A program made the position numbers and the translations under genes. A stretch of DNA of 55,408 nt, the filler included, from Jimgerdemannia flammicorona (Eukaryota), in NCBI GenBank assembly GCA_003990765.1. It is 2 parts of 2 records of this genome, joined end to end, with 100 filler letters (N's around TTAATTAATTAA, not from the genome) between each part and the next. Parts side by side here need not be neighbours in the genome. Positions count along the whole stretch, not along the records: positions 1 to 27,658 come from RBNJ01000614.1; 1 more part is not named here. One strand, 5' to 3'. This document shows positions 4,690-30,300 of this stretch, piece after piece; position 1 is the stretch's first letter, and each line of letters starts with the position of its first letter. The notes under the pieces were generated by a model. It saw only the letters and a program-made list of their open reading frames with translations, was not told where the DNA came from and did no database searches.

Positions 4690-5926
4690 AACATTCATAT
4701 CACACAAACTTCAAAACACACTTTTGAATCATTTATTGGAGAAAGCTACTAAGGACATAGAAACCAACAAGTGAGTCAACACATGTACTGGGTCGGGTGG
4801 ACATGGGGCCTTCAACTGGCAATACATTAGAAGAGAGTATGGATTGGGAATTGGGTCTTTTGGTGGTCCAAGTGGGCAGAGAAGTTCAGGTAGTGGTGGA
4901 GGGGCAGGAGGACAAGGGGGGAGAAGTTTTGCAGATATGCTGAAGGCTGGGGGATAGCCTGCTGGGTCTTGTAGTGGTCAGGCAGGGGGGAAGGGAAAAC
5001 AAAGAGAAGTGGGGGCAGGGAGTTCAGCAGCTCAACTGATAGATAGAAGAGCTAGTGGTGCAGTTGTGGGGGTGGAGGGGGGACTGCTGATGGGGGTGTG
5101 ACTGTAGATCGGGAAAAAAATCCAGATGTAATGGTTGATGGAAGAGCAGGGCTGCCAGGACCAAAGCAGATAGAGGACCTGACTGATGGTGTAACAGGGC
5201 TGGCAGTGGCACTGTTACTCAAGAAGTTGATATTAGAGTTTGCTATAACCTTGTGCTTCCAGAGCTTAGTGGTGACAGTAAGGATGGTTCTGGAGCTTAT
5301 CTCTAAGCAGGTGGCTGAAGCCACCTCCATGAGATTTCTGAAGGAGCTGGAGGGGGTTCAAGTGAGATTTGAGGAGGTGGGCCCAATAGAGAAAGTGTTG
5401 AAGACAAGAGTAGTTGTAGGTAAGGTGGTGGTCCCTATGGTGTATTGCTTAAGGTGATATCCCAGAGTGGTTCAGCTTTTGGTGAAGGGGGTGCCTACAG
5501 TGATGATGGCTGAGACCAGGAGGAGGGTTGAGGAGGTGATGGCAGAGTATGGTGATGTAGTTGATATTGGATTTCAGATATAGGAGGAGACTACTCTCAG
5601 GACTGGAGATGTGGATGTCAGGATCTGGCTAGCTGGGAAAGAGGCCACTGGGAAGTCAAGTGACTGACCTTTGGTTATGCTGTGGGGAGCCTTCATCTGA
5701 AAGGTATCAAGAGTGAAGGGGAGGGAGGAGGAGGAGGAGGATCTGCTGGAGGTATTGGAGGATTAGAGTGGAGTGGTAGAGAGGAAGACAAAGGCCTGGA
5801 AGGCATATATAGAGGTAACACACTTGGAGATTGTTGAAGGGAAGCATATTTGGGTTGACAAGAAAATGTGGAAGAGGTCCCAGGGCCACAAGTTGCAGAG
5901 GGAGCTACTGGTGAAGCTAGGGGGAG
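4690..5926 (+). mobile_element. 5' fragment of LINE (second 5' head type, ORF1 only), 3'-truncated against Gypsy sequence
   Basis: Head ACATTCATATCACACAAACTTC matches 21934. ORFs 5098..5457 and 5773.. match ORF1 of the other copies. The sequence switches abruptly to Gypsy RT at ~5927. Confidence 0.85.
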
Positions 5927-6860
5927 ACTATAAAACCCATCATATCACCCAATATAAATTCAGAAAATACAACACCTATCTGGCAGAAACTCTATAGAAT
6001 ACCCCATCTCTTAAAGACATTTGAAAAGGAACACATTCAAGAACTCTTAGACAATGGAGTCATCTGATCCTCTACTTGCCCTTGGGCCAGCCCCATACTT
6101 ATTGTACCAAAGAAAGGAGAATGGAGACTCTAGATAACAGAAAACTCAATTCAGTCACTAAGAAGGATACTGAGAATCAATGACCTCTTAGAATAGTTAC
6201 AAGATACCAAATACTTCAGCAGTATGGACCTTTTTACAGAATTCTATAAGAGCTCCATAGATCCCAAAGACTTTCAGAAGATAGCCTTTCTTACTCTAGG
6301 AAAACTGTTTGAATACCTCCAAATACTCTTTGGACTTTGCAATGCATCCACCATCTTTCAGAGAATGATGAACTCAGTCTAAGGTCTACTGATCTACCAC
6401 TGTCTAATTGTATATATTGATGATCCTAATAGCTATTCAGCAAATTTCAAGGAACACTTGCACTACCAAAAAGAATTCTTTAAGCTCACCCACAAGAACT
6501 ACCTGAGACTCAATACTAAGAAATACTACTTTGGAAAACAGAAACTTGAATTCCTTAGATTTATAGTTTCAAAAGAAGGAACTTATGTAGATATAAAGAA
6601 AACAGAGATAATTTACAACTGGCCAGTACTCAAGACCCTAAAGGAAATACTATTATTCCTGATACTAGTGTCTTATTATAGAAGATTTATCAAGGACTTT
6701 GCCCAAATTGCTACTTTAATCTGGATTCTTCTCAAGGAAGGAATACCATATAAATAGATAGAGTCACAAGTACTAGCCTTCAAGGAACTTGAGCATTACA
6801 TGACCACAGCACTAATCCTTATATATCCCAATCTATAGAAGCCATTCATCTTATATATAG
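5927..6860 (+). pseudogene. pol: Left half of an older Ty3/Gypsy pol (RT to start of RNase H), split by the younger full-length copy
   Basis: Collinear with 12635-13537 (LDNGVI, PWASPILIVP, VYIDD, LEFLRFIV, SYYRRFIKDFAQIA). It ends in FILYI immediately before the LTR. Confidence 0.9.
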
Positions 6861-8030
6861 TGTGACAAGCAATAGAATTGTACCACCAAATTCATAAATT
6901 AGCCATATACCACATCTAGTACACTAAGCAACCAAGACTACTTTACTGCACCAACTTGTATATTTAGCCAGAGACCCCAGAAACCATATGTTTACCTGTA
7001 CCCTCCAGGTATACCATACCCCCAAGGTACACCATACCCTTAAGGTACACTGTACCCTTCAGAAACACTTGCTGTAGATAGAAATCTATAGTTAGCAACA
7101 TAGTAACCAGTAGCAACCACAACTATATAAAATACCTCAGAGCTAAGAGTGAATAAACCTCAGTCTGAATTGAATTCAAAGCAAAAGTCAAGTCTGCCCA
7201 CCATACTTCAAGAGGAACTCTACAGCTACTGCTAGGAGATTGTGAGTAAAGCATTCCTTTTCACTCTGGTCTACTTTCTGATATAAAGAAGAGTTTGTTA
7301 TGTTTTTGGTTTGCTTGCCAGATATACCTGAAGAATCTGAGTTTGCTGTCAAGTTCAAGGAAGGACTTCACCACCATTTGAGTAATCCACCACTTAAGGA
7401 ATAAGCTGCCATTTCCAAGTTATCTGCACTCCCAGAAAGCTTACTATCCTTGCTACAAAGCCAGTCTGTTGATGCAACTTCACAGTAGAGTCAGTCTACC
7501 AATACAACTCCATGCAAGCGAAGCCAGTCTTGATGCAACTTTTCTCAAGAAAGTCCGTGACATCCAAGTTATCTGAGTTATTTAAATTATCCATGACATC
7601 TGAGTGATCCACACCATCTGAGTTATTTAGTGAGAAGAATCTGCCACTAGTGTAATTCCCAGTAAGCTGATTCAGGAGAATCCACGCGAAATTGAGTTAT
7701 CTGCCAAATTGGCAGAACGTCACACATAAGGAATCCACTATGCTATACAGTGACCATCACACTATACAAGAGATCATCATGCAGAAATCATATAAGAAAA
7801 ACTGCTAAATTACCAGACTGTCACCTATATACAAATCACTGCTATACCCAGAAGAACCATCCCAATAAGGAAATCAATACATAAATCACTTGCAGATATC
7901 CAGCTTTGACTATTATACTACTAAATACCAAGAACATTTTATTGCTTTTAACAAAGTAACTGGGGGCTCAAGGCAAACTACACCAACCTCCAACATTGTA
8001 ATTTATCTCCATTGAGGCAGGCATATTACA
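6861..8030 (+). repeat. 5' LTR (1170 bp)
   Basis: Starts TGTGACAAGC, ends ATATTACA and aligns end to end with 19056-20269. TATA-like TATATAAAA at 7124-7132 and AATAAA at 7152-7157 are similar in both LTRs. Confidence 0.95.
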
Positions 8031-8049
8031 TTTCAGGGCTCAACTAGGA
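8031..8049 (+). promoter_or_regulatory. Possible decayed primer-binding site (tRNA-Pro-like)
   Basis: TTTCAGGGCTCAACTAGGA directly follows the 5' LTR. It resembles the tRNA-Pro-type PBS TGGGGGCTCGTCCGGGA once CpG decay is allowed for. Confidence 0.35.
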
Positions 8050-8059
8050 AGATTTCATA

Positions 8060-9900
8060 ATCGACATAACTTTTTATCTCACAAGAACCTACAGTCAAAC
8101 TGGATACATTTGATACAACACCAATTTCTGCCACCACAGGAGAACCAGTCATCACCAGCATCTGGACAGAAAGAGAAGTAATTACTTCACTATACAGCAT
8201 AAGAAGGATCCCAACTGGAATCCAGTACAGCTCGAAATCCCTAACCAGATCAACCAGATAACACAGGTGGCCCTTTTGGAGACTTTGAAGAACTTGCCCA
8301 AGAACTAGAAGATCTTATTGCATAAGGCCGAAATCCTGCATCCAGGTACCCCAGAGCAGTTCCACCAATCTCACCCATTGAACCCTTACCATCAGCCCTT
8401 GCAGAACTGGAAACAGCTCCTTCAAGAATACCTAGGCTTATTCCATTTCGTCCAAGGTCCAGAACACCATCCTCAAGATACCCAAGCAACCCCATCTCCA
8501 GTGACAGTTCAGAAAGTGAATCAGAGTCAGAAACTGAATCAGAATCTGGACCAGAACCAGAATTAGAAGAAAGTGATAATGAAATGGCCACCTCATTGCC
8601 AATCTTTACAGGATATCTGAAGGAAGACCCTAGAAAATTCCTTGATGGAATTGAAGAAATTGCAGCTCTGGGAAATCTCTCAAATGAAAGGAAAATCACC
8701 TCTATAAGCCCCAGCTCAGAGAACCAGCCAGAGGAATTTTCCACTGAACAGCAAATGATCCAAATTCAGAACTGGCAATAGAAATACAAGCAGCAGTATC
8801 CTATTAGCTAGAATACATAGCTATGGCCCACTGGCTCATTGAAAAATATGCAGGAAATGAAACCCACCACAAGGCTCAAGAATTCATTATGGGGATGAGG
8901 ATGAACCTTTGTGAATTGTCCAGAGAATTTTTCACAAGAATCCAGAAGAGAATGCATGCAGCCAGGTTCAATGCCATCAACTAAGATATCATAGGTCCAA
9001 TGATCTTCATGAATGGAATTTTCTCAAACATTGCCCAGTATATCCACACTATAGGTATCAGAAGGTCTAAAGAGCAAGTAGATACAGCCTAAGGATTCTT
9101 TGATATCAGACAAGGAACTACCTGGAGTGATCATGACAAGAAGGATGATAAAGAAGACATCCTGGTCAAAGCCCTACAAGGACTCCTTCAAGGACAAGAG
9201 AGATCTGAAGAAAGAAGGCCAGCCAAAGAAGGAAAGAAGGACAGGAGCAAAATCTAAGATCTCAGCTCCAAGTTAGACAGATTGGTTGGACAGATTGAAA
9301 AGCTCCCCATATGTGAAAATTGGAGTTATCAAGACAACAGAGAATAACCACCACAAAGGAGCCAAAGTTATCCACCAAGAGATAATAAGAACTACCAGTA
9401 AGAAGAAAGAAAATATCCTGTCCAAGATAGAACCCAAGTTCAATACTTCCACTGTGGACAATTTGGACACTATGCTACCAAATGAGACAATAAAAGAAGT
9501 GACTGAAGGGACTCAGAACCACCAAACTGAAGGAATGACACCAAGTACAAGAAGACTGAAGCCCATCCTGTCCAAGATTTTGGGGAAGGAAGCAACAGTG
9601 AAGACAACAGTGACCTAGAATTGTACTCAGCCAAAGTCACTACCCAAAGACAGTTTACCCAGCAGACAAAAGAAAGAGATCTGTAGGAAGGCAGCAGAAG
9701 GATTGTCCAAGAAGAAGACGAAGAATATGAGGAGGAACAAGTAGAAACACCTCCCCAGACTCCTCCACTGTCTCTGAGACAAATGAGATGCCACTAGAGA
9801 ATGAAGAAATGGAACAAGAAGAATGGGAACCTGCTCCCAAGAAGAAGTATGCCTCAAAGACTATGCCCAGAGACATCTATAATGAAGCCTGGCAGAAGAT
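8060..9900 (+). pseudogene. gag: gag (capsid + CCHC zinc knuckle), interrupted
   Basis: MATSLPIFTGYLKEDPRKFLDGIEEIA at 8584 is a capsid-like start preceded by a Pro/acidic extension. A decayed knuckle YFHCGQFGHYATK* lies at ~9440-9485. Boundaries approximate. Confidence 0.75.
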
Positions 9901-10059
9901 CCAAGAAGCCAGGATAGAAGTCGTTCTCCTACAGTTCCTGCGACTGATACTAGCTGGAGTCTGAAACAAATTGCTGAGGACCACAAGGTCTAGCACTGGC
10001 CAAGTCCCCATCCCACAGCAAGAGCCAGCTCCTACACCTATCTAAGCTGCAGAGAAACA

Positions 10060-10430
10060 TATCAGCACCTACGTATATGGAGATATTAGAGGACAAAAGA
10101 CAAAAATCTTCAAAGACACAGAAGCAGCCATCTGTGTCATTGCCAAACAATTCCTGGATACCCTCCATTGGCCCATTAATGGACCATCCAATCACAGCAT
10201 CATAGTAGCAGATGGAGCCCAAACTCAACCCCTTGGAGAAATATGAAATATTATTATCTCTCTTGGACACATTTAGTTCTCAATCCCAAAAGCTATTATC
10301 ACCAAAGCTATCATCTATGACATGATCCTTGGCACCAACTGGATGAAGAAAATGAATGCAGTTGTTGATATCAGTCAACAAGTACTCAAGTATGACTACT
10401 GAGGCAAGAAGTATAGGGTTAAGGTGACCA
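10060..10430 (+). pseudogene. pol: Retropepsin-like aspartic protease domain
   Basis: IFKDTEAAICVI (DTG to DTE by GGA>GAA), IIVADGAQTQPLGEI and YDMILGTNWMKK. Confidence 0.85.
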
Positions 10431-11739
10431 GCTGTGAACAATCAAAGAAGAAGAAGAAGGTCACTATCTAGGAAGAATATGCCAGCAGTAAAGAATCTAT
10501 CATAGAAGAGAAAGAGGAATCCGAAGATGGAAATGATCCCAGACTCAATCCCCAAATCAATCTGGTGGATGATAGGCCAGAAGACAATATAAGGGCCAAG
10601 AACACTATCTCCATTACTATTGGAGCAATTGCAGGAGAAATGAAGGGATGCCCTACCTGCCTCAAGAGATATAAGTGCCCTAAGCACTCCTCCAAGATCA
10701 TTGGGACAAGGAATTCGCCTGGTACAGCCTGCTCTGAGTACAGAAAGAAGAAGAAGAAATGCAGACATATTCCAGAGACACCTGTAGCCGAAGCTGCAGA
10801 AGTACAAGCAATCTGGGGTCAAGAGTCATTAGAGAAAGATGAAATCCCCAAACAGGAGGTTCCTGAACAAGAAGCATCCAAAGGAGAAGAAGTCCCTGAA
10901 CTCATTCCCTGGAATAACCCTAACTGGACACCACCTGAAGATAATGACTCTTGGAAAATAGAAGAAGGACTCAGCACAATCTCCATTATTCCCAAGAAAG
11001 AAACTCACCAAGAAAGAGTTTTTTGGCTAAGAAGATGTCCACACCAAATGGTCCTCTACTCTCCCCAAGATTACTGCTATCAGTATCACCTACTAGACCA
11101 GCAGGAAAGATAGAGACCCCAAATACCAGAACCCCTGACTATAGTTGCACAGTCAACTACCTTCCAAAAGTTACTACCAAGTTACAAAGTTGATTTAGAG
11201 GATAAGGTCTCTTCACCTGAATAGAAGTATACTCTTTTCCAAACTTATGACTAAGTTGGGTACTGATTCCTGAGACAACAAGAGATCAACAACCAGGAAC
11301 AGCATTTTCAAGCAATGGGATATTGTAACCATAGAAGACATCCAGACTGCAGAGATGGCAGATATCAGAAGATTCACCTCAGTCATGATGTTGTGATTCA
11401 CACCTTGAAGAGAGGAGATAACAGAAGCTAGATCTGAAAAAACCAGACCAAAAAGAAAGGAAAAAGGACCCTCAAGATCTATGATTTAGGAGAAGACATC
11501 CTAGCTCTCATCAGAAATACAACCCACCAAGGATGGGTAGAAGATGCTACCAACTTCATGAAACCCTAGACCCTACAGGAAAAAGAGGAATCAATCACCT
11601 CTGAGACCCCTATATAGGAGCCAGATGGCCACACCTCAACCTCAGAGCCTGAAGGCTCTCTGCTAGTGGAGCTTCAGCCCAAGGACAGCCCAAACTCAGT
11701 AAGGATATTGCCCAGTATGCCCTGCTACATCTCAAGGTG

Positions 11740-12115
11740 AAACCCCTGACCAAAGCTCACCCAGAAGATGTAAAATATGATCTTCACAGTCTGGAGGATG
11801 AATCCAACAAGCCTGGAAGAACATTCATGATCAGAACTATACTAGCTATATGACCACTCCAAAACTTACATTCAACTGACATCAAGGTCTAGACTTGTCA
11901 GACAAGGAATAACCATAGAAGGAGGAACCATTGACCCAAGATATACAGGCAAAATCAAAGTCATCCTGCACAATAGCAGCACAGAATAGCACCAAATCAT
12001 AAGAGGACAGAAGATTGCCCATGCAGTCTTCATAATGGTCAAAACCCCACAATTACAAAAAGTCTCCAAATTGACTGAAGGAACAAGGCTAGCCAAAGGA
12101 TTTGGAAGCTCAGAC
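11740..12115 (+). pseudogene. dut: Trimeric-type dUTPase domain within pol (between protease and RT)
   Basis: All five motifs in order: EDVKYDL, TSRSRL, EGGTIDPRYTGKIKVILHN, RGQKIAH, RLAKGFGSSD. The second copy at 35315-35690(-) gives EDIGYDL, SRSGLARQG and EQKIAQV. Confidence 0.92.
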
Positions 12116-12519
12116 AAGAAGGAAGTATACCTCCTTCAGGTCAATTTCCTCAAGAGGAATGTTCCCCAGCAAGTGTACTGCCAATCAGTCAAACTGCACA
12201 AGAATCTCATCCTAGAGCCTAGAGAGCAAACCACCTTCGAAATCTTTGCACCACCAGACCCCACAAACCTCTTCTTTGAACCCAATGAAGATATCCCACA
12301 TCTGGACATTGAAGGACACACATTCCCCAACAAGATGAATCCAGTGCACTCCCAAGCAACCAATCAAAGTTGGGAAACCATCATCTTGCCAAAAGGAACC
12401 ATCATAGGACACCTGGTGCCTTTTCTTAACTGAACTCATAGAGAGGTTTATGAACTAAACTTATTGGGAAATGGCAAAAGGTCCCAGAAGAAAGGAAAGG
12501 CCCCTCTGCGACCCAGTAG

Positions 12520-13562
12520 ACAGTGAAGCCTTCCACCAACATTGGAGAAGAATTGCCACCTCAGCAATGGCAACAACTAGTTGAACTCCTCAACAAATAT
12601 CAAGATATCTTCACTACAGTCCATGGCAACCTGCCATACAATCCATCATATCACCGCAGCATAAATACAGGAAATGCAACACCCAACTGGCAGAAACCCT
12701 ATAGAATACCCCATCACTTAAAGATATTCAAAAAGGAGCACATTCAAGAACTCTTAGACAATGGAGTCATCCGACCCTCAACTAGCCCCTGGGCCAGTCC
12801 TATACTTATTGTACCATAAAAAGGAGGATGGAGACTATGCATAGATTACAAGAAACTCAATTCAGTTACCAAAAAGGATACCTATCCTTTGCCCAGAATT
12901 GATGACCTCTTGGACCAGTTGCAAGATACCAGATACTTCAGCAGTATTGACCTTTTCATAGGATTCTATTAGATCCCTATAGACTCAAAAGACATTCAGA
13001 AGACAGTCTTTCTTGCCCTAGGAAAACTGTTTGAATATCTCTGAATGCTCTTTGGACTTTGCAATATACCCCCCACCTTTCAGAGGTGATGAATTCAGTC
13101 TATGCCCCCCTGATCTACTCCTACCTGATTATATATATAGACAATTTAAGAATACTTCAGGCTCATCTGCCAGAACCACCTGAGACTCAATGCTAAGAAA
13201 TATTACTTTGGGAAATAGAAACTTGAATTCCTTAGATTTATAGTTTTGAAAGAAGGAACTCATGCAGACCCAAAGAAAACTGAGAAGATCAAAAACTGGC
13301 CAGAACCCAAGACCCCAAAGGAAACACTATCCTTCCTAATACTAGTATCCTACTACAGAAGGTTCATCAAGGACTTTGCCCAAATCACAGCCCCAATCTG
13401 AGTCTTTCTCAAGAAAGGAGTGCCTTATAAATAGATGGAATCACAAGAAAGAGCCTTCAAAGAACTCAAGAACTATATGACCACAGTACCAATTCTTATG
13501 CACCCCCATCTATAGAAGCTATTCATCTTATATACAGATGCTTCTAAAGATGGCCTTGGAGC
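12520..13562 (+). pseudogene. pol: Reverse transcriptase and start of RNase H of the Gypsy element
   Basis: [66 protein letters not shown] and FILYTDASKDGLGA. Confidence 0.95.
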
Positions 13563-16500
13563 GCTGAAGGGATTGGAGGCTGATCTCTTCCTCTTGCAGA
13601 ATGTCAGGTATGAGGATGATTCTGATAGGATGAAATGGATGAAGGAATGGGGAGGTGTGGCGATTTGGAAAGGCAAGGTTGGGATTCTGGTTAGGAAAGG
13701 CAGAGGAGAGATAAGGAATATGAGGAGCTGGGGGGAGAGACTGGTCTGGGGTGAGTGAATTCATGCAGGCTGGGGGCCTGTAACAGTTGGCTCCTGTTAC
13801 TGCCCTGTAGTACAGGGTGAGTATGTAGATTGGGTGAAGGGTCTCCAGGAGAGTGGGATCCTTGCAGAGGCTGGGGTGGATATGCTTGGAGGAGATTTCA
13901 AAATGGTTCGGGATATACTGATGGATAGAACAGATGGAGGATGGGGTGCTGAGAGCAGGAGTGGAGGGCTGGCAGAGTGGGAGGAAGTAGAAAGACTAAG
14001 TGTGCTGGTAGATGCTGGTAGGGAGTGCTGGGGGGATAGGAGGGTTTATATGCATTGGACAGGGGGCCTGGGGACAAGAATTGACTGGATTCTGATGGCC
14101 AGTTACTGGGGCCTAGATGTTTGGAAGTCGCTAGAGGTGGAATGGTGTCCATGGTCGGATCACTGGGGGCTTTGGGACAGGGGCACTTTGGGGGGAGTGG
14201 GGATGGGCCTGGACATTGGTGCCTAAATTCCTCTTTGTTAGATGATAAGACCCAGTGGGATGAGTGGGCTAAGGACATTCAACTGAGGGTGGAGAACTGG
14301 CAGCAGGAAGGTGCCTCAGTTGGTATTCGGTGGATGAGGATGAAAGAGATGGCCAAGATCTACTGGAGTGAGGCCAGCAAGGAGACAGGGAAGCAGAGAA
14401 GGTGAAGAGTGCATTGGGCTTCTACTAGATTGGCTAGGCTCCTAGAGGAGTGGGTGAGGCTGGTGATGTTGGAGGGGGAAGAAGATTGGAGATTAATGAG
14501 GGCAAAGATGGAGGTTGGAGAACTACAACAAGTGCTGTGAGAAGAGGAAGAAGCAAGGGTACAAAGCTTGGTAGCATGGCTTCATTGACAGGATCTGGAG
14601 GAAGGGGAGAGGCCTTCTGAGTTTCTTATGAGGGCCCTTTGGGCAAGAAGGGTACAGCAATGGTGAGAAGGAGTACTTGACTCTGATGGTGTACTAGTGC
14701 ATAGTGTACAGGACATTCTTGGATCGTTGAAGGAGTGATGGAGTGGATTGTGGAGTGAGGAGGAGGGTGAGGTGGATGCTGCTGCCATTGACTGAACATT
14801 GGAGGATTGGTACCCACCATAAGTAGAGGGGCTAGGTGACTTGGTGATGTCTGTACAGGAAGATGAGATCCACCAGGTTCTTGCTGCAACAACACCAGAT
14901 ACAGAACCTGGGGAGGATGGTCTGCCCTGGGACTTCTGGAAGTGAATGGTGGGAGACCCAGGAGTGATGAGAGAGGGCATTGTGTGATTTTATCCTACAG
15001 ACAGGGAGATGGGTGGGGGAGCAGGATCTTGGGCTGGTGATGCTGCTGTATAAGAATAAAGGAAGGTGAGAGGATTGGAAGAACTGACAGCCAATAATGT
15101 TGCTAGATATGGACAGAAAGTTGGTGACTATAGTGGTGGTTGCAAGGCTACAGAAGGTGGCCCAGCAAGTTGTAGATGTTGAGCAGAGGGGATTTGTGGG
15201 AGGTTGGCTCATTAGGGATGGCACAGCCTGAGTACATGGAGTTATTGAAGGGGCAAGGGCCTGTGGACTGGATGGGCAATTTATCTTCTTGGACCAGAAG
15301 AAGGCTTACAACTGGGTGTGATGAGTTTGGCTGGCAAAAGTATTGGATAGAACTGGGGTTCTGCACTAATTCTGGTCAGCAATGGTCAGCCTACTGGAAG
15401 GAAGTAGGGCTGCACTCATGTGTAATGGACATAGTGGGATAGTATTCCCCCTGGATAGAGGGGTGCCCCAGGGAGACCCACTGTCCCCCATTCTGTATGC
15501 TCTTTCCCTGGAACCCCTAATGGACAGAATTAGGCAGAGGATAATGGGGCTCCCTGTTTTCGAAATTGGGTGGAAAGTTGGGACCTTTGTAGATGACATG
15601 GTGGTTGGCTTGGGATCAATTGCTGATGTTGAGAAGCTCAAGAAGACAGTGGAGTGGTATGAGGAGAACTCTGGGGCTAAGCTTAATTGGCACAAGTGTG
15701 AAACAATGGTGCTAGATAATAGCCTGGTGGGAGGAGAGGTTATAGGAACAATCATCCCCACTGGTGAGGCAGTGTGGTACTTGGGCATCTATTTGTCAGT
15801 CTATGGGTCAGTTCTTCCCAGGCTTTGGTGGAAGCAGAGGATTGGAATCTGGGAGGAGGCCCTGCAGGATTGGGGGGAAAGATACTTTTCTCTGGCAGGG
15901 CATGTCTTGATTTTGAATATCTATTGGCTGCTGAAGTTATGGTATCTGGCTTATCATCTGGACTTCCTAGCTTGGGTGGTGAAAAGATTGATGAAGCTGG
16001 CTAAGGGATGGATCTGGGCTGGCAGAAGGAGTCAGATTGGTTGGGAGACCTTGTCCTTACTGGTGGCAAGAGGTGGCCTTGGGTTGGTTGACTTTCCAAA
16101 ATGGCTACACTGCTTGAGAGCATGGTGGCTAAAGAGAGCAGTGGAGTTGAGAGGAGGTGGTTGGGTTTCCCTACTGCAGAAGGTCTGGGAGAGGCAGTCA
16201 TCACCAAGAGGCTTGACTGGCAATCTCCTTTCATTGGTTAGACTTCAGAATACTGAACAATTGTGATATAAAGGATTCTGGTGGGAGAAAGCAGAGGGGG
16301 TGCACCACATTGGAATTTGTTGGCAGGAGAATAAAGGGGAGGTGGCTTGGGACCTGGTGATGTAGAGGTGGGATCATATACTGCTGGGTGGCATTCCTTT
16401 AATTGAGTTCAACATTAGTGATGGAATGGAATGCCAAAGGGGACCAGGCCAGGATCTGTGGCCTAGCAGTTGACAAGGAGTTGGAATTGGAGAAGAGTGG

Positions 16501-17192
16501 AACTGGTATAGTGTTTGGACCCGGAGTACCACAGTGAGAAAGTGGATGCTGCTGAAGTACTGAGTGGTCTGGTGGTGCATGCTGAGGAGGAATGTAATGC
16601 TCAACTTCCACTCGGGTCAGCTTATCATAGGGGGTTGCTTCGACTGTGAGGAGTGCCATAATGTAGAGCAGGAAGAGAGTTATGTACAGATGCCAGAATA
16701 TTGGCTAGGAGAGTGTGAGGTGATGGGGGACTTTTAGTGGGCCATTGGGGATCACTTGGGGGTAAGGAGTAGGGGAGATGAAGTACAGGGGTGGTGGGAG
16801 AACTTGAGGGATTGATTGGTAGGGGGGGTAGATAAGAAGTGGCTTACCTTAGGCTGGGCTTTGGCCATTTGGGTGGGGCTGGCCAGTCACTGGCTATTTG
16901 TTTTTAAGGATGGAAGGAGACAGGGCTTGGGAGACCAGTTGTTGTGGTGGTATAGTCTTATGGAAGACACCTTGACAGGCTGGTGGCTTGGTTGGGGGCT
17001 GCAGGGTGATCAGAGGCACCACTTAGTGAAGAAAATCTGTGGACAGAGTGGGGGAAGAGTTGGAGTAGTGGGTGAGAGAGTGATCTTCATTTGTGAGAAG
17101 GTGTAGAGGGGCTCCCCTATGGGGATTGGGTAGTGGGTGGTGATACTGTATACTTATTCATAGACTGGTAATAAAGATGGAGTCCAAGTAAC

Positions 17193-17220
<28 letters not shown>
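13563..17220 (+). mobile_element. 5'-truncated L1/Tx1-like LINE (EN-RT-Cys domain, 3'UTR, poly(A)) inserted in Gypsy RNase H
   Basis: 17-bp TSD AAAGATGGCCTTGGAGC (13546-13562 and 17221-17237), AATAAA at 17170-17175 and poly(A) from 17196. Motifs: GGDFKMV, RIDWIL, WSDH, GPGHWCLNSSLL, GVPQGDPLSPILY, FVDD, YLGI. Confidence 0.95.
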
Positions 17221-17223
<3 letters not shown>

Positions 17224-17237
17224 GATGGCCTTGGAGC

Positions 17238-18600
17238 ATCTCTAGCCCAAGAAGGACCTGACCAACAGTACTATATGGTAGTTTATAATAACTGACCATA
17301 CAGCCCTCAAATGGCTATTCAACCACAAAGAACCTACTGGAATCCTAGTCTACTGGACCCTTATCCTCCAGGATTACAAAATCACTATTATTCAAAAAGC
17401 AGGGAAAGCTCATGATAATGTTGATGTACTTTCCTGCCAACTCCAATATACTGGAAGAAGGGTGTCCTGAGGAACTATACCCTAAAGGAAGCTCCTCAGA
17501 TCATTAAGGCATAAGAAGACCTCATCTGGAAAGAACATCAGAAAGCCCATCAAGAATAGGTGAACATAGAAGAAAAGTTATAAACAACATACCAACTTTG
17601 GCCCAATCTCAGAACATAAGTCTGAGATATACTCAAGAAGTAAGATGTCTGTCAGAAGTACTAAGGAAGGAAGAACTACCAAGTATAACTACATCAAATT
17701 GTCCCATCAGACAACATTTTCCAGAAATGGAGAGTAGATGTAATTGGACCTTTACCTGTTATACTAAGAAGAAACAAGTACATTCTTATATTTGTAGAAA
17801 ATCTGACTAAGTGGCCTGAGGCTTTCTCAATGGAAATTGCAGATACCTTAATCATTGTAGGCCTTCTCCATAGACTCACTCTCAGATATGGACCTCCAGA
17901 AGAACTCATCTCTGATGGAGGTAGAGAATTCATCAACAACATAATCACAAGTTATATCTAAATTCACAAGATCCACCTCAAACAGACCTCATCATATTAC
18001 CCCCAGACCAATGGAATGACAGAAAGAATGAATCAGACCATCAAGAAAGAACTTGCCCCAGTCAATTCTACCAACTGAGAACTCTGCTTACCTGAGATCC
18101 TATGGGAAATTCAGAACACCCCTGCTGCCCCCACCAAACAAAAGCCATTCAAAATAGTGTTTGCCAAGAGAACTAGAACTGCTGATCATGAAAATCTAGA
18201 GAACCTTCCCAAGAAGGCAGAACAGTTATATAATCAGGCTTGAGTTCAGATTTTTAAAGCCCAAGAAAGACAAAAGTACTATGACCAGAAGCAGAAGGAT
18301 CAGGATATCAAGATTGGAGATCAAGTACTAGTTTGGAGAAGTATGATTGAAACGAATTCTGCTGCCAAACTGGAGCCCAAATGGGAAGGATCTTATCTTG
18401 TACACAACATCAGAGAAACCAACATCTATTTAAGAAGCATAGATGGATGGACCCTCAGGACACCAGTATACATCAATCGCCTCAAGATATATCTCTCCCA
18501 TCATAAACCAGACAATTGACCAGCACCTCTAAACTCTTATTTTGAGTTCATTCCAATCACTCCCAGTTCCCCTTCCACAATTCCAACAAGCCAATAGAAA
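17238..18600 (+). pseudogene. pol: RNase H C-terminus and integrase (HHCC, DDE, GPY/F) of the Gypsy element
   Basis: GKAHDNVDVLS, VDVIGPLP, PEELISDGGREF, YPQTNGMTERMNQTIK and KLEPKWEGSY; no chromodomain visible. Confidence 0.92.
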
Positions 18601-19027
18601 CCCCCTTCAGTGAATTCAGACCTATCAAGAGAACCTCACCTTGGCCAGATGTTTACTCTAAGTCCACCAGCTATAGGCCTACTATGCAATTGAAGAACAG
18701 TTGCAGAACCCACCAGCAGCAGACCTGACCTACATCAGAAACTCTACTGGCCTCACCTGGAAAAATATCACTGCTGCAGACAGATTATATATAATCTACA
18801 AATAAAATGTCACAGTACTGATATAGGCACAATTCCTCCTGAATGACATCCAAAACATGAATCCTGCCACCTACTAGAGCATTATCAACCATGTTGAGAT
18901 CCTGTTTCCAGAGGAAGAGGAAAAATCTGTCAAATGGAGTAACTCCGATCCAAATGAAGATACTGGTTCAGGTATTGATGCTGAAGATGCTTATGCATAT
19001 TGAAATGATGACTAAAGGATTGTCTGA
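18503..19027 (+). pseudogene. Extra ~174-codon ORF (ORF3) between integrase and 3' LTR, unknown function
   Basis: One frame without net frameshift; its stops are mostly explicable as CAA/CAG/CGA/TGG transitions. The start ATA-AAC-CAG corresponds to ATG-AAT-CAA at 21633 in the older copy. A homologue lies at ~31806-32329(-). Confidence 0.7.
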
Positions 19028-19055
19028 AGACAAACCATCCTTTAGTAGGAGCTGA

Positions 19056-20269
19056 TGTGATGAGCAATAGAATTGTACCACCAAATTCATAAATTAGCCA
19101 TATATCATATCTAGTACACTAAGTAACCATGACTGCTTTACTGTGCCAACTTGCATATTTAGCCAGAGATACCAGAAATAGTATGTTTTCTTGTACCCTC
19201 TAGGTACACTGTACCCTCAAGATACACTGTACCCTCAAGGTATACTCTACTCTCTAGGAATAATTACCATAGATAGCAATCTATAGTTAGCAACATACTA
19301 ACCAGTAGCAACCACAACTGTATAAAATACCCCAGAGACAAGAGTGAATAAACCTCAGTCTGAATTGAATCCAATACAAAAGTCAAGTCTGCCTACCACA
19401 CTTCAAGAGAAACTCTATAGCCACTGCTAGGAGATTGTGAGCAAAGCATTCCTTTCCACTCTGGTCCACTTTTCAATATAAAGAAGAGTTTGTTACATTT
19501 TTGGTTTGCTTGCCAGATAAGCCTGAAGAATCTGAGTTTATCACCAAGTTCAAAGAAGAACTTCACCACTATTTGAGTAATCTGCTGCTTAAAGAATAAG
19601 CTGTCATTTCCAAGTTATTTACACTCTCAGAAAGCTCACTATCCTTACTACAAAGCCTGTCTGTTGATACAACTTTACAGTAGAGCTAGTCTAATGATAC
19701 AACTCCATATAAATGAAGCCCATCTAGATGCAACTTTGCTCAAAAAAGTCTGCAACATCCAAGTTACCTGAGATATCTGAATTATCCACAATATCTGAGT
19801 TACTCGAGTTATCTGAATTATCTATAACATCTGAGTAATCCATGCCATCCAAGTTATTTATCCATTTCTAGTGAGAAGAATCCACCACCAGTATAATTCC
19901 CAGTGAGCCAATTCAGAAGAATCCAGGCCAAATTGAGTTTTCTGCCAAATTGTCAGAACATCAAGCATAAGGAATCCACTGCACTATACAGAGACCATCA
20001 TGCTATGCAAGAGATCATCACATGGAAATCATATAAGGAAAACTGCTAAATTGCCAGACTGTTACCAATATACAAATCTCTGCTATATCCAGAAGAACCA
20101 TCCCAATAAGGAAATCAACACATAAATCACTTGTAGATACCCAGCTTTGACTATTATACCACTAAAACCAAGTATATTTTGTTGCTTTTAACAAAGTAAC
20201 TGGGGGCTTAAGCCAAACTACATGAACTCCCAACCTTGTAATTTGCTCTATTGAGCCAAGCACATTACA
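19056..20269 (+). repeat. 3' LTR (1214 bp)
   Basis: TGTGATGAGC...CACATTACA, preceded by a weak purine tract (TTAGTAGGAG) and followed by TSD ATAG. Confidence 0.95.
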
Positions 20270-20273
20270 ATAG

Positions 20274-21655
20274 ATACTTTGAAAGATAGCCTTGGAGCAG
20301 TTCTGATTTAGAAAGGACCTGACCAACAATATCATATGATAGATTATGCAAGCCAAGCTAATAATCAGCAGCAGATCAACTATGGTAGTACTAAATTAAA
20401 ATACCTTGTAGTCATTTGGATAGTTACCCTATTTAAACATTATCTTATTGGAAAAAGCTTCACCCTGATAACTGACTCTACTGCCCTCAAATGACTATTC
20501 AACTATAAGAAAATGACTAGAATCCTGGCCTACTAGATTCTTATCCTTTAAGATTACAAAATCACTATTATTCACAATATAGAAAAAGCTCACAATAATG
20601 TTAATATACTTTCTCACCAACTCTAATGAACCAGAAAAGGGGTGTACTGAGGAACTACACCCTAAAGAAAGCTCTTCTGATTAGCAAGGCACAAGAAGAT
20701 CTCATCCAAAAAGAATACCAGAAAGCCCACCAAGGAAGGTAAATATAGAAGAAAAACTGCAAATAATATACCAACATTGGCCCAATCTCAGAACTCAAGT
20801 CTGAGACATACTTAAGAAACATGATATCTGCCAGAAGTACTAAGAAAATAAGAATTATTAAACACCATTACAACCAATTGTACCACTAGACAACATCTTC
20901 CAAAGATTGGGAGTTGACATTATTAGAACTCTATCAATTATATGAAGAAGAAACAAGTATATACTAGCATTTGAAGAACATCTGACCAAGTGGCCTGAAG
21001 TCTTTCCAATAGAAATCCAAGATTTCCTGACCATTATTGGCCTTCTCCATGAAGAACTCATCTCTAACTAAGGTACAGAATTCATTAACAATATAATCAC
21101 AAGTTATACTCAAATTCACAAGATTCATCTTAAGTGTACCACATCATATCACTCTCAGACCAATGATATAGAACAAATGAACCAGACCATTAAGAAAGAA
21201 CTTGCCTGTGTCAATCCTACCAACTGGGACCTTTGCTTACCTGAGATCCTATGGGAAATTTAGAACACTCCTGCTGTCTCTATCAAATGAAAGTCATTTG
21301 AGATAATGTTTGCCAAGAAAACCTGAACAGCTGACCATGAGAACCTCAGAGACCTCCTCAAGAAGGCAGAATAGTTATATAATCTGAGTTCAGATTATCA
21401 AGACTGAAGATAGACAAAAGAAGTACTATAATCAGAAGTGAGATTGGAGATCAAGTACTAGTTTGGAGAAAGGATAATTGAAAAACACTTTGCTGCTAAA
21501 CTAGAGCCCAAATGGAAGGATCTTATCTTGTACACTATATTAGAGGAACCAGCATCTATTAAGAAGTATGGATGGATAAACCCTAAGGATACCAGTATAC
21601 ATCTTGTCTTAAGAGATACCTCTCTCCACATAATGAATCAAGGATTTACCAGGAT
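20274..21655 (+). pseudogene. pol: Right half of the older Gypsy pol (RNase H + integrase), cut off by a LINE
   Basis: FKHYLIGKSFTLITD, LGVDIIR, SYHSQTN and KLEPKWKDL; continues in frame from 6860. Confidence 0.9.
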
Positions 21656-21933: not shown

Positions 21934-24900
21934 TACAATTCACATTACACAAACTTCAAGCAATAGTTTTCAACACAACTCAGAGAAAAGGTACTATAAA
22001 AATATCATCAAGCAAGAGTTCTGAAGGACATGCTGGGTCGGGTGGACCTGGGGCTTTCAGCTGGCAGCATGTGGGGAGAGGTTATGAATTGGGAATGGGG
22101 GCTTTTGGAGGGTCAAAGGGTGGCAAAGGCTCTAAAGGAGGACCAGTGTCAGGTGGATCTGGGGGAAGGCCTGGTCCCTCTAGCTTTGCCAACAAGATGA
22201 AGATGAGAGGATGGCCTGCTTGAACCAGGGCTGATACTGCTGAGGGAAAGAGCAAGGCTAGCATCAGGAGGGAGAGTGGCCCTCAGGTGGGAGATGTGAG
22301 CATAGGGGCTAAAGGGGCTGTGGCTGGGGGTGTGACTGTTGATGGGAGTGTGATGGAAAATCAGAAAAAAAAAAGAGATGTGACAGCTGATGGCCAGATG
22401 GGGCAGGGGTTCCCAATGCGGAAGTGGGACCTGGCGGATGGTGTAATGGGGCTGGTGGTGGCCCCATTGCTCAAGAAGTTGATCTCAGAGTTTGTAGCTA
22501 CCTTGTGCTTTCGGGACTTAGTGGTGATAGCGAGGATGGTCCTGGGGCTTATTTCGAAGCAGGTGGCTGGGGCAGCCTTGGTTAAGTTCCTGAAGGGTCT
22601 GGAGGGGGTTGAGGTGGGCTTTGAGGAGGCAGACCCACTGGACGAGGCCCAGAAGACTGGAGTAGTGGTGGGGGAAGTGGTCATCCCCATGGTGCAGTGC
22701 TTGAGGTGGGACCCCAGAGTGGTGTAGCTTCTGGTGAAGGGGGTGCCTATGGTGATAAGAGAGGAGACTAGGAGGAGGGTGGAGGAAGTGATGGTAGAGT
22801 ATGGTGATGTAGTTGACATTGGCTTCCAGATTTGGGAGGGGACCACCTTCAGGATGGGTGATATTGATGTCAAGATTCGGCTGGTAGGAAAGAGGCCACA
22901 GGGAAGATGAGTGACTGGCCCTCAGTGCTGATGTGGAGGGCTTTTGTCTGTAAGGTGTCAAGGGTGAAAGGGAGTGAAGAGAAGGAGGAGGACTTGTTGG
23001 AGGCTCTGGAGGAGTTGAGTGGTGCTGTGGAGAGGAGGGCAAAAACCTGGAAGCTATATGAAGAGTTAACACATCTGGAGGTTGTCGATGGGAAATGTAT
23101 CCATACTGACAGGAGGCAGTGGGAGTGGGCCCAGGGGCGCAAGAGGTAGAGGGAGCTTTTGGCTAGTATGAAAGGAGGGGTGAAGAAGAAGGTAGATAGG
23201 TCTAGAGGAGTCGAAGCCAGCATCTGGACTACCAAAGGAGGAGAGGAGGTGGAGGTGAATGAGAAAGGGGCTGGGAAGGTACTGGGCAAGAATCCCTATG
23301 CTGATGGTACATTCAAAGTTTTGGAGCAGGATTTGGATGACACCCCCCCCCCCACTTATCAGAAGGGGCCCAGTTGGGAAAAGAGGGACAGCGGAGGATG
23401 TGCTGATGCAGGGGGCTCAGCGATTTCACTTTGGGGCCCCAGATGTGGTGAAAGGGGGCCTGGTGGTGGCAGTTGGTGAGGACAAGCTGGTGGATGTCCC
23501 AGAGGAGGAGTGGGATGAGGCAGCCAGTGTGGGAGCAGATACCACAATGCTGGAGGCAGGGTGGCCAGGGACTCCTGGAGGGAAGGAGGTGGGGAACCTG
23601 CTGTGGATGAGTAAGGTGATAGATAACCTCATGGCTGAGGAGTTGGGAGAAGTTGACCTGCATGTAATGCCAGAGGAGCATTGGGCATAGATTCTGCATG
23701 GGGATGGAGTGGTGGAGGCACTGAAGGTGGAGATTCTGGCTATTTTCCTAGATGAGGAGGGATACGAGGTTGATAAGGTGAGAGAGGCAGAGCTGGCAGT
23801 GGTTGCTGTTGAGCGAGCTGCCTACTGTTGGGCAGAGCATCATGGTTTGCAACTCTGGCAAGAGGCATACCTGAAGTATCATGAGGACTTTGAGGAAAAA
23901 GAGGATGGGGTGATGGCTGAACTTCTGAAAGGGTTGGAGGCATGGACAGCTGAGGAGAAAGTGCTGGCTACAGAACATGACTTGGACTCGGTACAAGAGG
24001 AGTTGAATGTGGATTTGTAGAGGCTGTAGCTGATAAATTGACATTATTCCTAATGAACAGTACAACTGACATTTTCTCTCTGAATGTGAATATATTGTGG
24101 GGTTCTGGGTAATGCAAGAACATTTTTACTTGGCTTAAGAGATTGGAGGCTGATCACTTTTTACTGTAGGATGTATGGTGTGAGGATGAGATAGATCGTG
24201 GAATGGACTAGAGAATGGGGAGAAGCTACTGCTTGGAATGGCAAAGTAGCAATTCTGGTGAGGAAGGGTAGAGGGGACTTGAGTGGGATTCAGAGCTGGG
24301 GTGACTGTTTGGTCTGGGGAGAATGGTATTGATCTGGGTGGGAATCAGTGAGGGTTGGCTCCTGCTACTGCCCTGCAGTTAGGGGTGAGCAGATTGAGTG
24401 GATTAGGGATCTGTTAGAGGAGGGTGTCTTCTTGGAGGAAGGTGTCAATGTTCTAGGGGGTGACTTTAATATGGTGCAGGATCCACAGCTGGATTGAACT
24501 GATGGAGAGAGGAGTGCCATTGGAAGAAGTGGTGGACTGGATAAGTGAGAGGAGGTAGAGACCCTTAGCTCCTTAGGGAATATGGGCAGAACATGGTGGG
24601 GTGACAGGAGGATCTATACACACTGGGTAAATGGACTGGGTACAAGAATTGACTGGATTCTGATGGCTGAATGTTGGGGTGTTGATGTTTGGAGGACATT
24701 AGTGGTAGAGTGGTGCCCTTGGTCTGACCACTGAGGGCTATTGGGGCAGGGACAGTTTGGGGGGAGTGGAGATAGACCCAGACATTGGCACCTTAACTCC
24801 TCTCTGCTGGCCACACAGGGTTTGTGGGATCTATGGGTGGCAGATGTCCAAGTGAAGATACATCTGTGGGTGTCCAGTGGATGAGGCTAAAGGAGGCAGT

Positions 24901-29949: not shown

Positions 29950-30300
29950 TGCTCCTTCTCAATCCCAACTAGGACAGATTGAGGTACTGCATCGAACGAC
30001 TTGAAGTGCTTCACCAACGGGCCGGATGTCCTTTCGGTGACTGGTGTTAGATTTCAGGGCGAGAAGCATAAAGTCTATGGCTGCGGTGGTCAACTTGTGA
30101 GACCTAAAAACCTGCAAGAACTCCTTATATTCGGGCTCATTGTCACGCGCCTCCTTCCAAGGCCTGGAACCGGTAACCAACTCGAAAAACATTATTCCGA
30201 GTGCCCAAACGTCGCCGAAAAAGGTCTCCAGTTTGCAGACTCGTCCGAAGGGATCTCCGGACTCATGTAAGGGACCGGGAGCCGAAGTAAAACACTCCTT
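29950..30300 (-). pseudogene. Kinase C-lobe fragment (inverted duplicate)
   Basis: GDVWALGIMFFELVTGSRPWKEARDNEPEYKEFL in ORF 29959..30339; no N-lobe or catalytic loop upstream. Confidence 0.8.

Follow-up and report, generated by a model that had tools for sequence, protein, structure and literature searches.

What has stripped cytosines from the transposable elements (TEs) at this locus: a RIP-like defence directed at repeats, or the ordinary decay of methylated DNA? The window, by which we mean the whole stretch of 55,408 nucleotides analysed, comes from Jimgerdemannia flammicorona, whose genome is reported at 240 Mb with more than 77% repeats. A preliminary description had surmised an early-diverging fungus from a kelch gene and L1-clade LINEs, and both pointers hold. 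The kelch ORF (53074-53997) finds its best match in a J. flammicorona protein at 83% identity, with further matches from Endogone, which places the host in Endogonales (Mucoromycotina); relatives of the LINEs show an APE+RT+zf-RVT, L1-like architecture.

The features are collected in the table below, where light and heavy refer to the load of C>T change outside CpG. The LTRs of element A start with TG and finish with CA between two copies of a 4-bp target site duplication, ATAG, and a weak protease-like match (12520-12816) lies in the 5' internal part. Element A inserted into copy B: the two flanking stretches, 5930-6860 and 20270-21328, are directly adjacent in copy C (33855/33858). Among the LINEs, Lb carries RVT_1 in an ORF at 15370-16266 (E 7.7e-15). 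The unclassified block at 46600-49295 has no reference copy elsewhere within the window, and LTR fragment D is too diverged to serve as an outgroup.

Table. Features of the window, with coordinates, strand and supporting observations.
Feature	Position	Strand	Observation
LINE copy La (light)	281..3922	-	matches 13563-15437 and 22323-25863; GC 0.493
LINE fragment Ld, 5' piece (light)	5067..5906	+	74% match with 22319-23157
Copy B (LTR family of element A), left half	5930..6860	+	interrupted by inserted element A
Element A (Ty3/Gypsy-like, light), 5' LTR	6861..8030	+	82.8% blastn match with 19056-20269
Element A internal, 5' part	8031..13562	+	every ORF broken; collinear with copy C
LINE copy Lb (light), 5'-truncated, nested in element A	13563..17097	+	matches 24133-27647
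Element A internal, 3' part with integrase	17098..19055	+	rve match 17689-17958, E 5.5e-7
Element A, 3' LTR	19056..20269	+	against 5' LTR: 132 transitions, 29 transversions, 20 reciprocal CA/TG pairs
Copy B, right half	20270..21633	+	GC 0.352, CpG o/e 0.00
LINE copy Lc (light), longest LINE copy	22319..27647	+	RVT_1 in ORFs 25708-26121, 26125-26382
Unique CpG-retaining DNA with kinase-like duplicates (non-TE control)	27759..30432	.	CpG o/e ~1; weak Pkinase match
Copy C (LTR family of element A, heavy): 3' LTR 30433-31775 and internal part	30433..36193	-	blastn and transition-tolerant alignment
LINE copy Le (heavy)	36211..37874	+	C>T 0.31, each strand
LTR fragment D (heavy)	38486..39274	+	alignment
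Unique CpG-retaining island separating two heavy blocks	39727..41610	.	CpG position list
LINE copy Lg (heavy), 3' part, adjoining unique DNA at 41610	41624..45027	-	transition-tolerant alignment to Lc
LINE copy Lg, 5' end	45402..45906	-	aligns with reference positions 1-505; MITE-like insertion splits off rest of Lg
LINE 3' fragment (heavy)	45989..46594	+	alignment
Unclassified CpG-free AT-rich block	46600..49295	.	GC 0.241, CpG o/e 0.00, CA/TG 0.62, TpA/ApT 1.22
Unique CpG-retaining DNA with kelch gene	49296..55408	.	CpG 323/306 obs/exp; GC3 0.63

Two layers of cytosine loss can be told apart, the first being the loss of CpG. Across all TE DNA, where about 1723 CpG would be expected, 79 are present (o/e 0.01-0.05); observed/expected counts are 77/1421 at 1-27650, 1/166 at 31481-38300 and 1/136 at 42001-49200. 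Adjacent unique DNA keeps its CpG (o/e 0.82-1.05), as had been proposed; the unique-rich intervals give 170/178 (27651-31480), 89/108 (40001-42000) and 323/306 (49201-55408). At both borders read base by base (30433 and 41624), no more than about 20 bp separate the switch from the end of the TE; at the latter, the last CpG of the unique island is at 41610 and the LINE begins at 41624. Light copies show an excess of TpG/CpA (CA/TG o/e 1.22-1.30). A LINE relative from a metagenome (locus L001) is less decayed (CpG o/e 0.37-0.72), and 100 of its CpG that could be aligned read TG/CA in light copies at 45/100 and 39/100, and TA in the heavy copy at 33/100. The pattern is demonstrated; its mechanism, as far as sequence can tell, would be ordinary TE-targeted CpG methylation followed by deamination of 5mC. 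This layer matches plain TE-directed 5mC deamination, and a new defence is not required for it.

Comparable decay is familiar from other systems of TE CpG methylation, and the likeness extends to the confinement of CpG loss to TE DNA, the TpG/CpA excess in less decayed copies (o/e 1.2-1.3) and the normal CpG content of genes. Excerpted accounts describe CG methylation that is high and bimodal at most TE loci in Rhizophagus irregularis, and mainly CG methylation in Phycomyces, with DNMT1 plus a DIM-2-like enzyme; CpG and TpCpG biases of basidiomycete repeats are cited in an excerpt of the Rhizoctonia paper. Unlike such systems, however, the window combines near-total erasure (o/e 0.01-0.05) with sharp bounds and a second, non-CpG layer that, in some blocks, takes as many as 45% of the cytosines still left. 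According to that same excerpt, genes and repeats of Rhizoctonia AG8 are affected alike, unlike the TE-limited pattern here. A literature search found no report of such decay for Endogonales, the Chang 2019 genome paper and Bewick 2019 being outside its scope.

The LTR pair of element A displays both layers, the second at low intensity. Their alignment spans 1216 columns, of which 1007 are identical, 132 are transitions, 29 are transversions (1.24% per branch) and 48 are gaps; the initial 100 positions contain 9 transitions and 1 transversion, exactly the 10 differences originally counted. Twenty reciprocal CA/TG pairs account for 40 of the transitions and represent the same CpG lost independently on either strand. 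The motif pairs quoted for them, GACAAG/GATGAG and TGCACC/TGTGCC, are both present in the alignment, as are TCCACCACT at 7386 and TCTGCTGCT at 19581. Three further transitions are C/T preceding G. In the remainder, C/T stands before A 49 times (CA/TA or TG/TA, the non-CpG differences noted at the outset), before C 19 times, before T 8 times, and before a variable neighbour 13 times; normalised by our own arithmetic, the order A > C > T becomes 0.198, 0.109 and 0.024. As this signature separates LTRs that belong to a single element, it arose after integration.

In the AT-rich blocks at 30.4-39.7 and 41.6-49.3 kb an additional 20-45% of non-CpG cytosines have been converted C>T. This and all that follows draws on a single window of 55 kb, with three heavy copies for which a reference exists and two borders that can be measured. 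On the branch to copy C, non-CpG C>T affects 140 of 734 sites, T>C 35 of 1274, and transversions number only 12; the excess is not confined to CpG. Both strands are affected alike: the per-site rates are 0.207 (87/420) and 0.169 (53/314) in copy C, and 0.329 and 0.326 in Lg. The 3' neighbour matters strongly in the three heavy copies pooled: CpA is hit at 272/730 (0.37), CpC at 263/773 (0.34) and CpT at 153/912 (0.17; chi2 p 1e-22). In the same pool the effect of the 5' neighbour is weak (p 0.03, rates 0.25-0.32) and a CHG effect is absent; nor do the heavy copies contain strand-coordinated runs, C>T being evenly distributed (z 0.6, 0.2, -1.0). The excess of heavy over light copies runs at roughly CpA 4 : CpC 3 : CpT 1. 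The combined CpG plus CpA defence signature originally suggested thus survives in part: non-CpG C>T is real and numerous, but it is not CpA-specific.

Duplicated DNA outside TEs provides a control. A tandem duplicate (27759-28234/28184-28651) differs by 34 transitions and 22 transversions and shares 24 CpG, and an inverted duplicate (28707-29373/29673-30331) differs by 79 and 71 and shares 20. These pairs of 470-670 bp and 72-88% identity have kept their CpG at a transition:transversion ratio of 1.1-1.5 and show no duplication-triggered C>T, although they are short, perhaps coding, and in one case have by now dropped below 80% identity. Excess C>T is limited to TE DNA, as the preliminary description proposed, and the spectrum of unique DNA differs.

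Could heavy copies simply be far older, having drifted to an AT-rich equilibrium under an ordinary AT-biased spectrum, with only the CpG layer TE-specific? Unique non-coding patches are AT-rich too (GC 0.29-0.36). Nevertheless, where unique DNA is as AT-rich as heavy TE DNA (GC 0.33), its dinucleotide profile is the reverse (CA/TG 1.15 vs 0.76, TA 0.83 vs 1.18, CT/AG 0.81 vs 1.74), and the non-TE duplicates have a transition:transversion ratio near 1. One insertion has one age, yet C>T load shifts five-fold across 300 bp while transversions stay flat. From the border inward, Lg carries 4/49, then 14/52, then 0.45-0.61 (Fisher p 1.5e-8), and copy C 5/54, then 0.23-0.41 (p 4e-4); the load is thus 8-9% in the 150-200 bp nearest unique DNA, and the fade spans the last 150-300 bp of the TE, at 2 of 2 borders tested. 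With the metagenome outgroup, transversions in light copies vs heavy Lg are equal (over all columns, 171 against 167 and 168 against 178; over reliable columns, 75 against 66 and 82 against 81), whereas C>T counts are 142 vs 466 and 135 vs 525, or 3.3-3.9 times more in the heavy copy. For the LINE, the power of this relative-rate test is limited: were active lineages to evolve at roughly half the neutral rate, an insertion five times older would, by our estimate, gain only about 25 transversions on top of about 170, and poorly aligned columns give heavy LINE copies more of them. In the LTR family, copy C has 12 transversions on its terminal branch (0.6%, vs 1.24% per branch for the light element A LTRs), copy B 41 and element A 66. 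The ratio of GC>AT transitions to transversions is 11.6 (6.6-24.7), 1.9 and 1.4, in that order. The ancestors behind these figures were reconstructed using three or four copies, all decayed, and polarity errors are visible, such as a surplus of 'T>C' on branch A. Because transversions to the outgroup are equal, the load fades within single copies and non-TE duplicates keep their CpG, the second layer is not simply age; heavy copies are more C>T mutated, not demonstrably older, and their early designation as 'older' has to be dropped. Age as the sole cause is improbable. Editing of retroelement cDNA before integration by an APOBEC-like enzyme is scarcely credible, even though every affected element of recognisable family is a retroelement and APOBEC3 hypermutation likewise yields massive C>T (read as G>A) with few other changes. 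Per-site sense-strand C>T and G>A are equal, the 5' neighbour is nearly without influence, the same signature, acquired after integration, separates the LTR pair of a single element, and load varies with distance to flanking host DNA. Strand symmetry and the border effect together contradict it.

A true RIP-like process is possible but on the unlikely side: an episodic, enzyme-driven C>T mutator acting on repeated or heterochromatic DNA, for instance around zygospore formation, which may depend on DIM-2 and heterochromatin, not RID, and would leave the first layer as ordinary CpG methylation decay. As in the RIP of Neurospora crassa and other Pezizomycotina, C>T strikes both strands of repeats far above other changes, leaves AT-rich relics beside GC-normal genes, and hinges on the 3' neighbour. 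Heavy and light classes coexist within 55 kb, copy C pairs the heaviest load with the shortest transversion branch, and the lower load at repeat ends also suits homology-dependent targeting. Yet the order here is CpG >> CpA >= CpC > CpT, with CpG saturated and CpC nearly equal to CpA, where RIP is CpA-dominant; strand-coordinated runs are absent, linked non-TE duplicates are untouched, and La, Lb, Lc and A, long repeats resident for long enough to lose all CpG, escaped heavy mutation. The host also lies outside Dikarya. RID is reported, second-hand and in excerpt, as lost in Mucoromycota except AM fungi and absent from Mucoromycotina; Mucoromycotina are likewise said to be without RIP signatures (Venice 2020, as excerpted in a citing paper), and kingdom-wide screens confine such signatures to ascomycetes.

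The explanation we prefer, to which we give not quite an even chance, is that the decay of silenced TEs in this Endogonales fungus proceeds in two layers, each directed at cytosine and each probably a result of DNA methylation. All TEs of the window, whatever their family, would be CpG-methylated up to their very ends, and spontaneous deamination would turn nearly every TE CpG into TpG/CpA, unmethylated unique DNA retaining its own. Inside some TE blocks, non-CpG cytosines have also become T on both strands, with the 3' preference A >= C > T and an intensity that varies from block to block, most likely through dense, heterochromatin-guided methylation in all contexts by a DIM-2-type enzyme, then deamination. 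Such methylation would weaken at heterochromatin borders, and site-autonomous CpG maintenance would reach the edge. Mucoromycota relatives encode DNMT1 and a DIM-2-like enzyme, according to excerpted sources. The one Mucoromycotina methylome quoted, that of Phycomyces, as excerpted, argues against it with low non-CG methylation (CG 2.2%, CHG 0.3%, CHH 0.5%), as does the 27-kb TE block at 1-27650, devoid of CpG but with little of the second layer, which an 'interior of heterochromatin' rule does not predict. In copy C, moreover, every transversion-equivalent is matched by 26 or more C>T, vs about 7 in element A, which resembles bursts more than steady decay.

Neurospora offers a functional parallel to this methylation-based reading, by analogy. 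A methyltransferase active in all contexts and guided by H3K9 methylation could produce both-strand, context-relaxed C>T in heterochromatin cores, and the split into heavy and light classes could reflect feed-forward, in which AT-rich DNA attracts more heterochromatin. In that fungus, RIP reportedly has a branch dependent on DIM-2 and heterochromatin, and AT-rich relics are reportedly methylated. It is conceivable, though we rate it unlikely, that a heterochromatin-coupled, RID-independent mutator acts on TE cores in Endogonales, a RIP-like defence with its own signature of CpA >= CpC > CpT plus CpG; mutagenic repeat defence would then be older than Dikarya or have evolved twice. More broadly, the window appears to carry the footprint of long-lasting, sharply TE-limited CpG methylation, with a second, position-dependent C>T process turning some TE blocks into AT-rich relics. 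Together they suggest a genome defence linked to methylation, of a kind that has received little study in these fungi; should the pattern extend across the genome, it would provide a concrete, testable system for genome defence in a TE-swollen mycorrhizal lineage. The footprint contrasts with recent reviews, which in excerpt credit early-diverging fungi with almost no 5mC, and with screens that find RIP-like mutation in ascomycetes only.

Composite RIP indices deserve caution in this setting. The AT-rich copies had been called saturated with TpA, which is true of the heavy LINE copies and of 46600-49295 (TpA o/e 1.18 in each) and not of the LTR copy at 31481-36193 (only 0.97); ACAGTGGAATGG at 26197 and ATAGTAGAATAA at 36300 occupy equal offsets in aligned LINE copies. 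The usual thresholds are TpA/ApT >= 0.89 and (CpA+TpG)/(ApC+GpT) <= 1.03. The outcome is mixed: heavy LINE copies (1.24 and 0.93) and 46600-49295 (1.22 and 0.74) pass both, in line with a RIP-like process, and neither heavy LTR copy C (1.07 and 1.13) nor any light copy (0.75-0.96 and 1.28-1.54) does. Composite indices are blind to signatures of this kind where CpG decay inflates CpA/TpG, and a RID-independent mutator, if real, would be missed by screens built on them because CpG>TpG/CpA decay masks its signature.

Most of the window consists of copies of two retroelement families, as delineated by self-comparison and transition-tolerant alignment. Pfam searches over 22 broken TE ORFs returned rve and RVT_1, with all other matches below threshold. 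Because the window's own LINE copies lack a Pfam APE match, assignment of this family as L1-like rests on remote homologues, in which an APE+RT+zf-RVT architecture is present. The LINE sense strand is unusually G-rich and C-poor, with a GC skew of +0.35 to +0.52 at ~50% GC (1-4000, 13563-17097, 22319-27647, and 1-4546 of L001, a metagenome contig carrying a related LINE); heavily mutated copies and the metagenome relative retain this skew, which therefore characterizes the family itself rather than resulting from the mutation process. The kelch ORF at 53074-53997 is matched by a J. flammicorona protein at 83% identity over 85% of its length, with weaker matches in the same species and in Endogone sp., which places the window in an Endogonales fungus (Mucoromycotina) or something closely related.

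Retroelement copies, unique DNA and CpG counts (observed/expected) along the window
Feature	Position	Strand or arrangement	CpG
Ty3/Gypsy-like LTR family	17689-17958	integrase match	
Element A (LTR family)	6861-20269	LTRs 6861-8030 and 19056-20269	
Copy B (LTR family)	5930-6860 + 20270-21633	A inserted into B	
Copy C (LTR family)	30433-36193	minus strand	
LINE family		G-rich sense strand; RVT_1 matches in window copies	
La (LINE)	281-3922	minus strand	
Ld (LINE)	5067-5906		
Lb (LINE)	13563-17097	nested in element A	
Lc (LINE)	22319-27647		
Le (LINE)	36211-37874		
Lg (LINE)	41624-45027 + 45402-45906	minus strand	
Unique DNA	~27.76-30.43 kb, 39.73-41.61 kb, 49.30-55.41 kb		
TE interval	1-27650		77/1421
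Mostly unique interval	27651-31480		170/178
TE interval	31481-38300		1/166
Mostly unique interval	40001-42000		89/108
TE interval	42001-49200		1/136
Unique interval	49201-55408		323/306

Two layers of change can be distinguished in the TE DNA: a near-total loss of CpG over all of it (layer 1) and additional non-CpG C>T in some blocks (layer 2), the copies with and without a strong layer 2 load being termed heavy and light. CpG loss reaches the edges of the insertions, with the final CpG of the unique island adjoining Lg at 41610, and with CpG kept only in the first 11 bp (30438, 30443) at the LTR end of copy C. The products of CpG decay are in excess in light copies (CA/TG o/e 1.22-1.30). A metagenome scan for LINE relatives yielded one, L001, among 60 candidate stretches; at 68% nucleotide identity and with the same GC skew, its LINE still has a CpG o/e of 0.37-0.72. 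At 100 aligned L001 CpG sites, La reads 23 TG, 22 CA and 5 TA, Lc reads 21 TG, 18 CA and 6 CG, and Lg reads 33 TA, 12 TG and 8 CA. Layer 1 appears to be the trace of symmetric CpG methylation directed at TEs, with later deamination of 5mC, a phenomenon already known in other fungi. Positions 1-94 of L001 are 81-91% identical to the terminal part of the LTR family seen here, so both TE families co-occur in another, related genome.

Layer 2 was examined by aligning element A with copies B and C (2234 full columns) and counting the changes private to one of the three. Copy C carries private C>T at 140/734 non-CpG C/G sites—CpA 68/232, CpC 38/175, CpT 34/327—alongside T>C at 35/1274 sites and 12 transversions, and the two strands are alike (87/420 vs 53/314). 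The heavy LINE copy Lg has a GC content of 0.333 vs 0.49-0.52 in La and Lc, with C>T at 0.33 on each strand (CpA 0.45, CpC 0.36, CpT 0.21). Pooling C, Lg and Le, the only three heavy copies with references in this single 55-kb window, and taking ancestral states as the majority among decayed copies, with polarity errors visible, the 3' neighbor has a strong effect (CpA 272/730, CpC 263/773, CpT 153/912; p 1e-22) and the 5' neighbor a small one (0.25-0.32, p 0.03). In the same pool, no effect of the plant-like CHG context was found, CAG (0.32) and CTG (0.16) being no higher than CAH and CTH. Mutated sites are evenly spaced at near-binomial density, and a runs test against 2000 site-resamplings detected no strand-coordinated clustering of C>T vs G>A (z 0.63, 0.19, -1.03).

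The preliminary description had proposed a RIP-like or methylation-driven C-to-T hypermutation limited to transposons, pointing to the LTR pair of element A. These LTRs start with TG, end with CA, and are flanked by a 4-bp duplication (ATAG). The 1168 bases aligned between them contain 132 transitions and 29 transversions. LTR alignment bears out the nine transitions and one transversion counted in the first 100 positions, and all the quoted motif pairs recur at homologous positions. Forty of the transitions form 20 reciprocal CA/TG pairs; the remaining C/T differences precede G (3), A (49), C (19), T (8) or a variable neighbor (13). Normalized by our own arithmetic, the non-CpG differences by 3' neighbor are A 0.198, C 0.109 and T 0.024. 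The A > C > T order is thus seen again, at low intensity, between the LTRs of light element A, which suggests that layer 2 is a continuous process whose intensity varies, not an all-or-none one. Polarizing the C/T differences before A via C3' and the LTR fragment D gave outgroup C/G in 19 cases, T/A in 15, another state in 11 and none in 4, these outgroups being too diverged for the purpose (transversions 14-22%).

Layer 2 is not merely a matter of age or background. With L001 as outgroup, relative-rate comparisons gave transversions of 171 vs 167 and C>T of 142 vs 466 for La vs Lg, 168 vs 178 and 135 vs 525 for Lc vs Lg, and 147 vs 129 and 223 vs 170 for La vs Lc, or, over reliable columns only, 75 vs 66 and 67 vs 235 (La vs Lg, p 5e-23) and 82 vs 81 and 56 vs 280 (Lc vs Lg, p 6e-37); yet, should the rate in active lineages be roughly half of neutral, a five-fold older insertion would add only ~25 transversions, and this test therefore cannot by itself exclude age. 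The LTR-family ratios and the position effect within insertions are free of this weakness. GC>AT transitions per transversion reach 11.6 in copy C (bootstrap 6.6-24.7) vs 1.9 in B and 1.4 in A, whose branches carry 41 and 66 private transversions, respectively, and the private transversions of copy C (0.6%) fall below the 1.24% per branch between the light LTRs of element A. Most telling is position dependence inside single insertions: C>T at ancestral G/C sites of Lg is 4/49 in the 150 bp adjoining the unique island, rises to 14/52 over the following 150 bp and is 0.45-0.61 farther in, and in copy C it is 5/54 in the 200 bp adjoining unique DNA, then 0.23-0.41 (Fisher p 1.5e-8 and 4e-4). Transversions are flat over the bins, and the fade is seen at both borders measured, the two that have a reference copy.

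Background composition differs as well. AT-rich unique DNA (GC 0.33) has CpG 0.90, CA/TG 1.15, TA 0.83 and CT/AG 0.81, whereas heavy LINEs of equal GC have CpG 0.01, CA/TG 0.76, TA 1.18 and CT/AG 1.74. Two pairs of kinase-like non-TE duplicates, which may be coding, show transition:transversion counts of 34:22 and 79:71 and share 24 and 20 CpG. In light LINE copies the most mutated context is CpT (0.11-0.15 vs 0.06-0.08), so the excess process in the heavy copy is ordered CpA > CpC >> CpT.

What generates layer 2? We favor, at slightly less than even odds, a process in which heterochromatin would guide dense methylation in all contexts, with subsequent deamination. Such methylation would explain the TE limitation common to both layers, the even spread of hits over both strands, the fade at borders that CpG loss nonetheless reaches, and the sparing of non-TE duplicates, and it fits the DNMT1 and DIM-2-like repertoire reported for Mucoromycota relatives. 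A RIP-like episodic mutator seems a less likely source: it better accounts for the extreme C>T:transversion ratio of copy C and for heavy and light classes, especially the 27-kb light block with CpG loss only, but CpA dominance is absent and long repeats have long survived unmutated. The methylation and RIP-like explanations would merge into one should the mutating be done by a DIM-2-type enzyme, as described in Neurospora. The composite RIP index, by our own subtraction, is -0.67 to -0.79 in light copies and -0.06 to +0.48 in heavy ones; it would miss the pattern because CpG decay inflates CpA/TpG. Editing of cDNA is excluded, as both strands are symmetric, a 5' motif is absent, and the signature is post-integration (LTR pair) and dependent on distance to the border.

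RIP-like signatures are confined to ascomycetes according to Badet and Croll 2025 (PMC12543289), and Hane 2014 (PMC4014442) describes hypermutation biased toward CpG in Rhizoctonia, along with the biases of basidiomycetes. R. irregularis TEs carry CG methylation (Dallaire 2021, PMC8647823), and the same article, citing Venice 2020, has RIP signatures undetected in Gigaspora and Mucoromycotina. Citing Bewick 2019, Chaturvedi 2021 (PMC8298701) lists DNMT1, 2, 5, DIM-2 and RID in AM fungi, with DNMT5 and RID lost in sister Mucoromycota clades. The Phycomyces methylome and its DNMTs are treated by Nai 2021 (PMC7862722), and a 2026 review (PMC13297926) describes 5mC as near-undetectable in early-diverging fungi. 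The J. flammicorona genome spans 240 Mb with >77% repeats (PMC10386755). Literature searches, largely outside subscription titles and not covering the genome paper on Endogonaceae, turned up neither methylation nor RIP-like mutation reported for Endogonales.

Several further features were observed. Right beside the end of Lg, 40986-41554 is GC-rich (0.56-0.61), CpG-dense and open in three plus-strand frames, with no Pfam match; it is a candidate gene, low-complexity region or CpG island. Duplicated protein-kinase-like fragments in 27759-30351, tandem (27759-28234/28184-28651) and inverted (28707-29373/29673-30331), all keep CpG; their Pkinase match is weak (E 6.6e-6, under the Pfam cut-off), and they could belong to an expanded kinase family and be in decay. 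Two 44-N runs (27659-27702, 27715-27758) just beyond the 3' end of Lc, at the unique-DNA border, may mark either an assembly gap or sequence that was masked. Copy C is interrupted at 32666-32761 by 96 nt of poly(T) (poly(A) on the sense strand), which separates segments lying next to each other in element A. Short CpG-free repeats, in neither analyzed family, are common to 0-5 kb and 21.6-22.1 kb (1-263, 4032-4309, 4693-4881, 21659-22128). Finally, a ~300-bp palindromic MITE-like repeat occurs at 37405-37705, 38305-38645 and 45035-45335; the copy at 38305-38645 has kept 7 CpG at a GC of 0.31, against 0 CpG at a GC of 0.20-0.24 in its two counterparts, and it is either younger or a methylation escapee within a heavy block.
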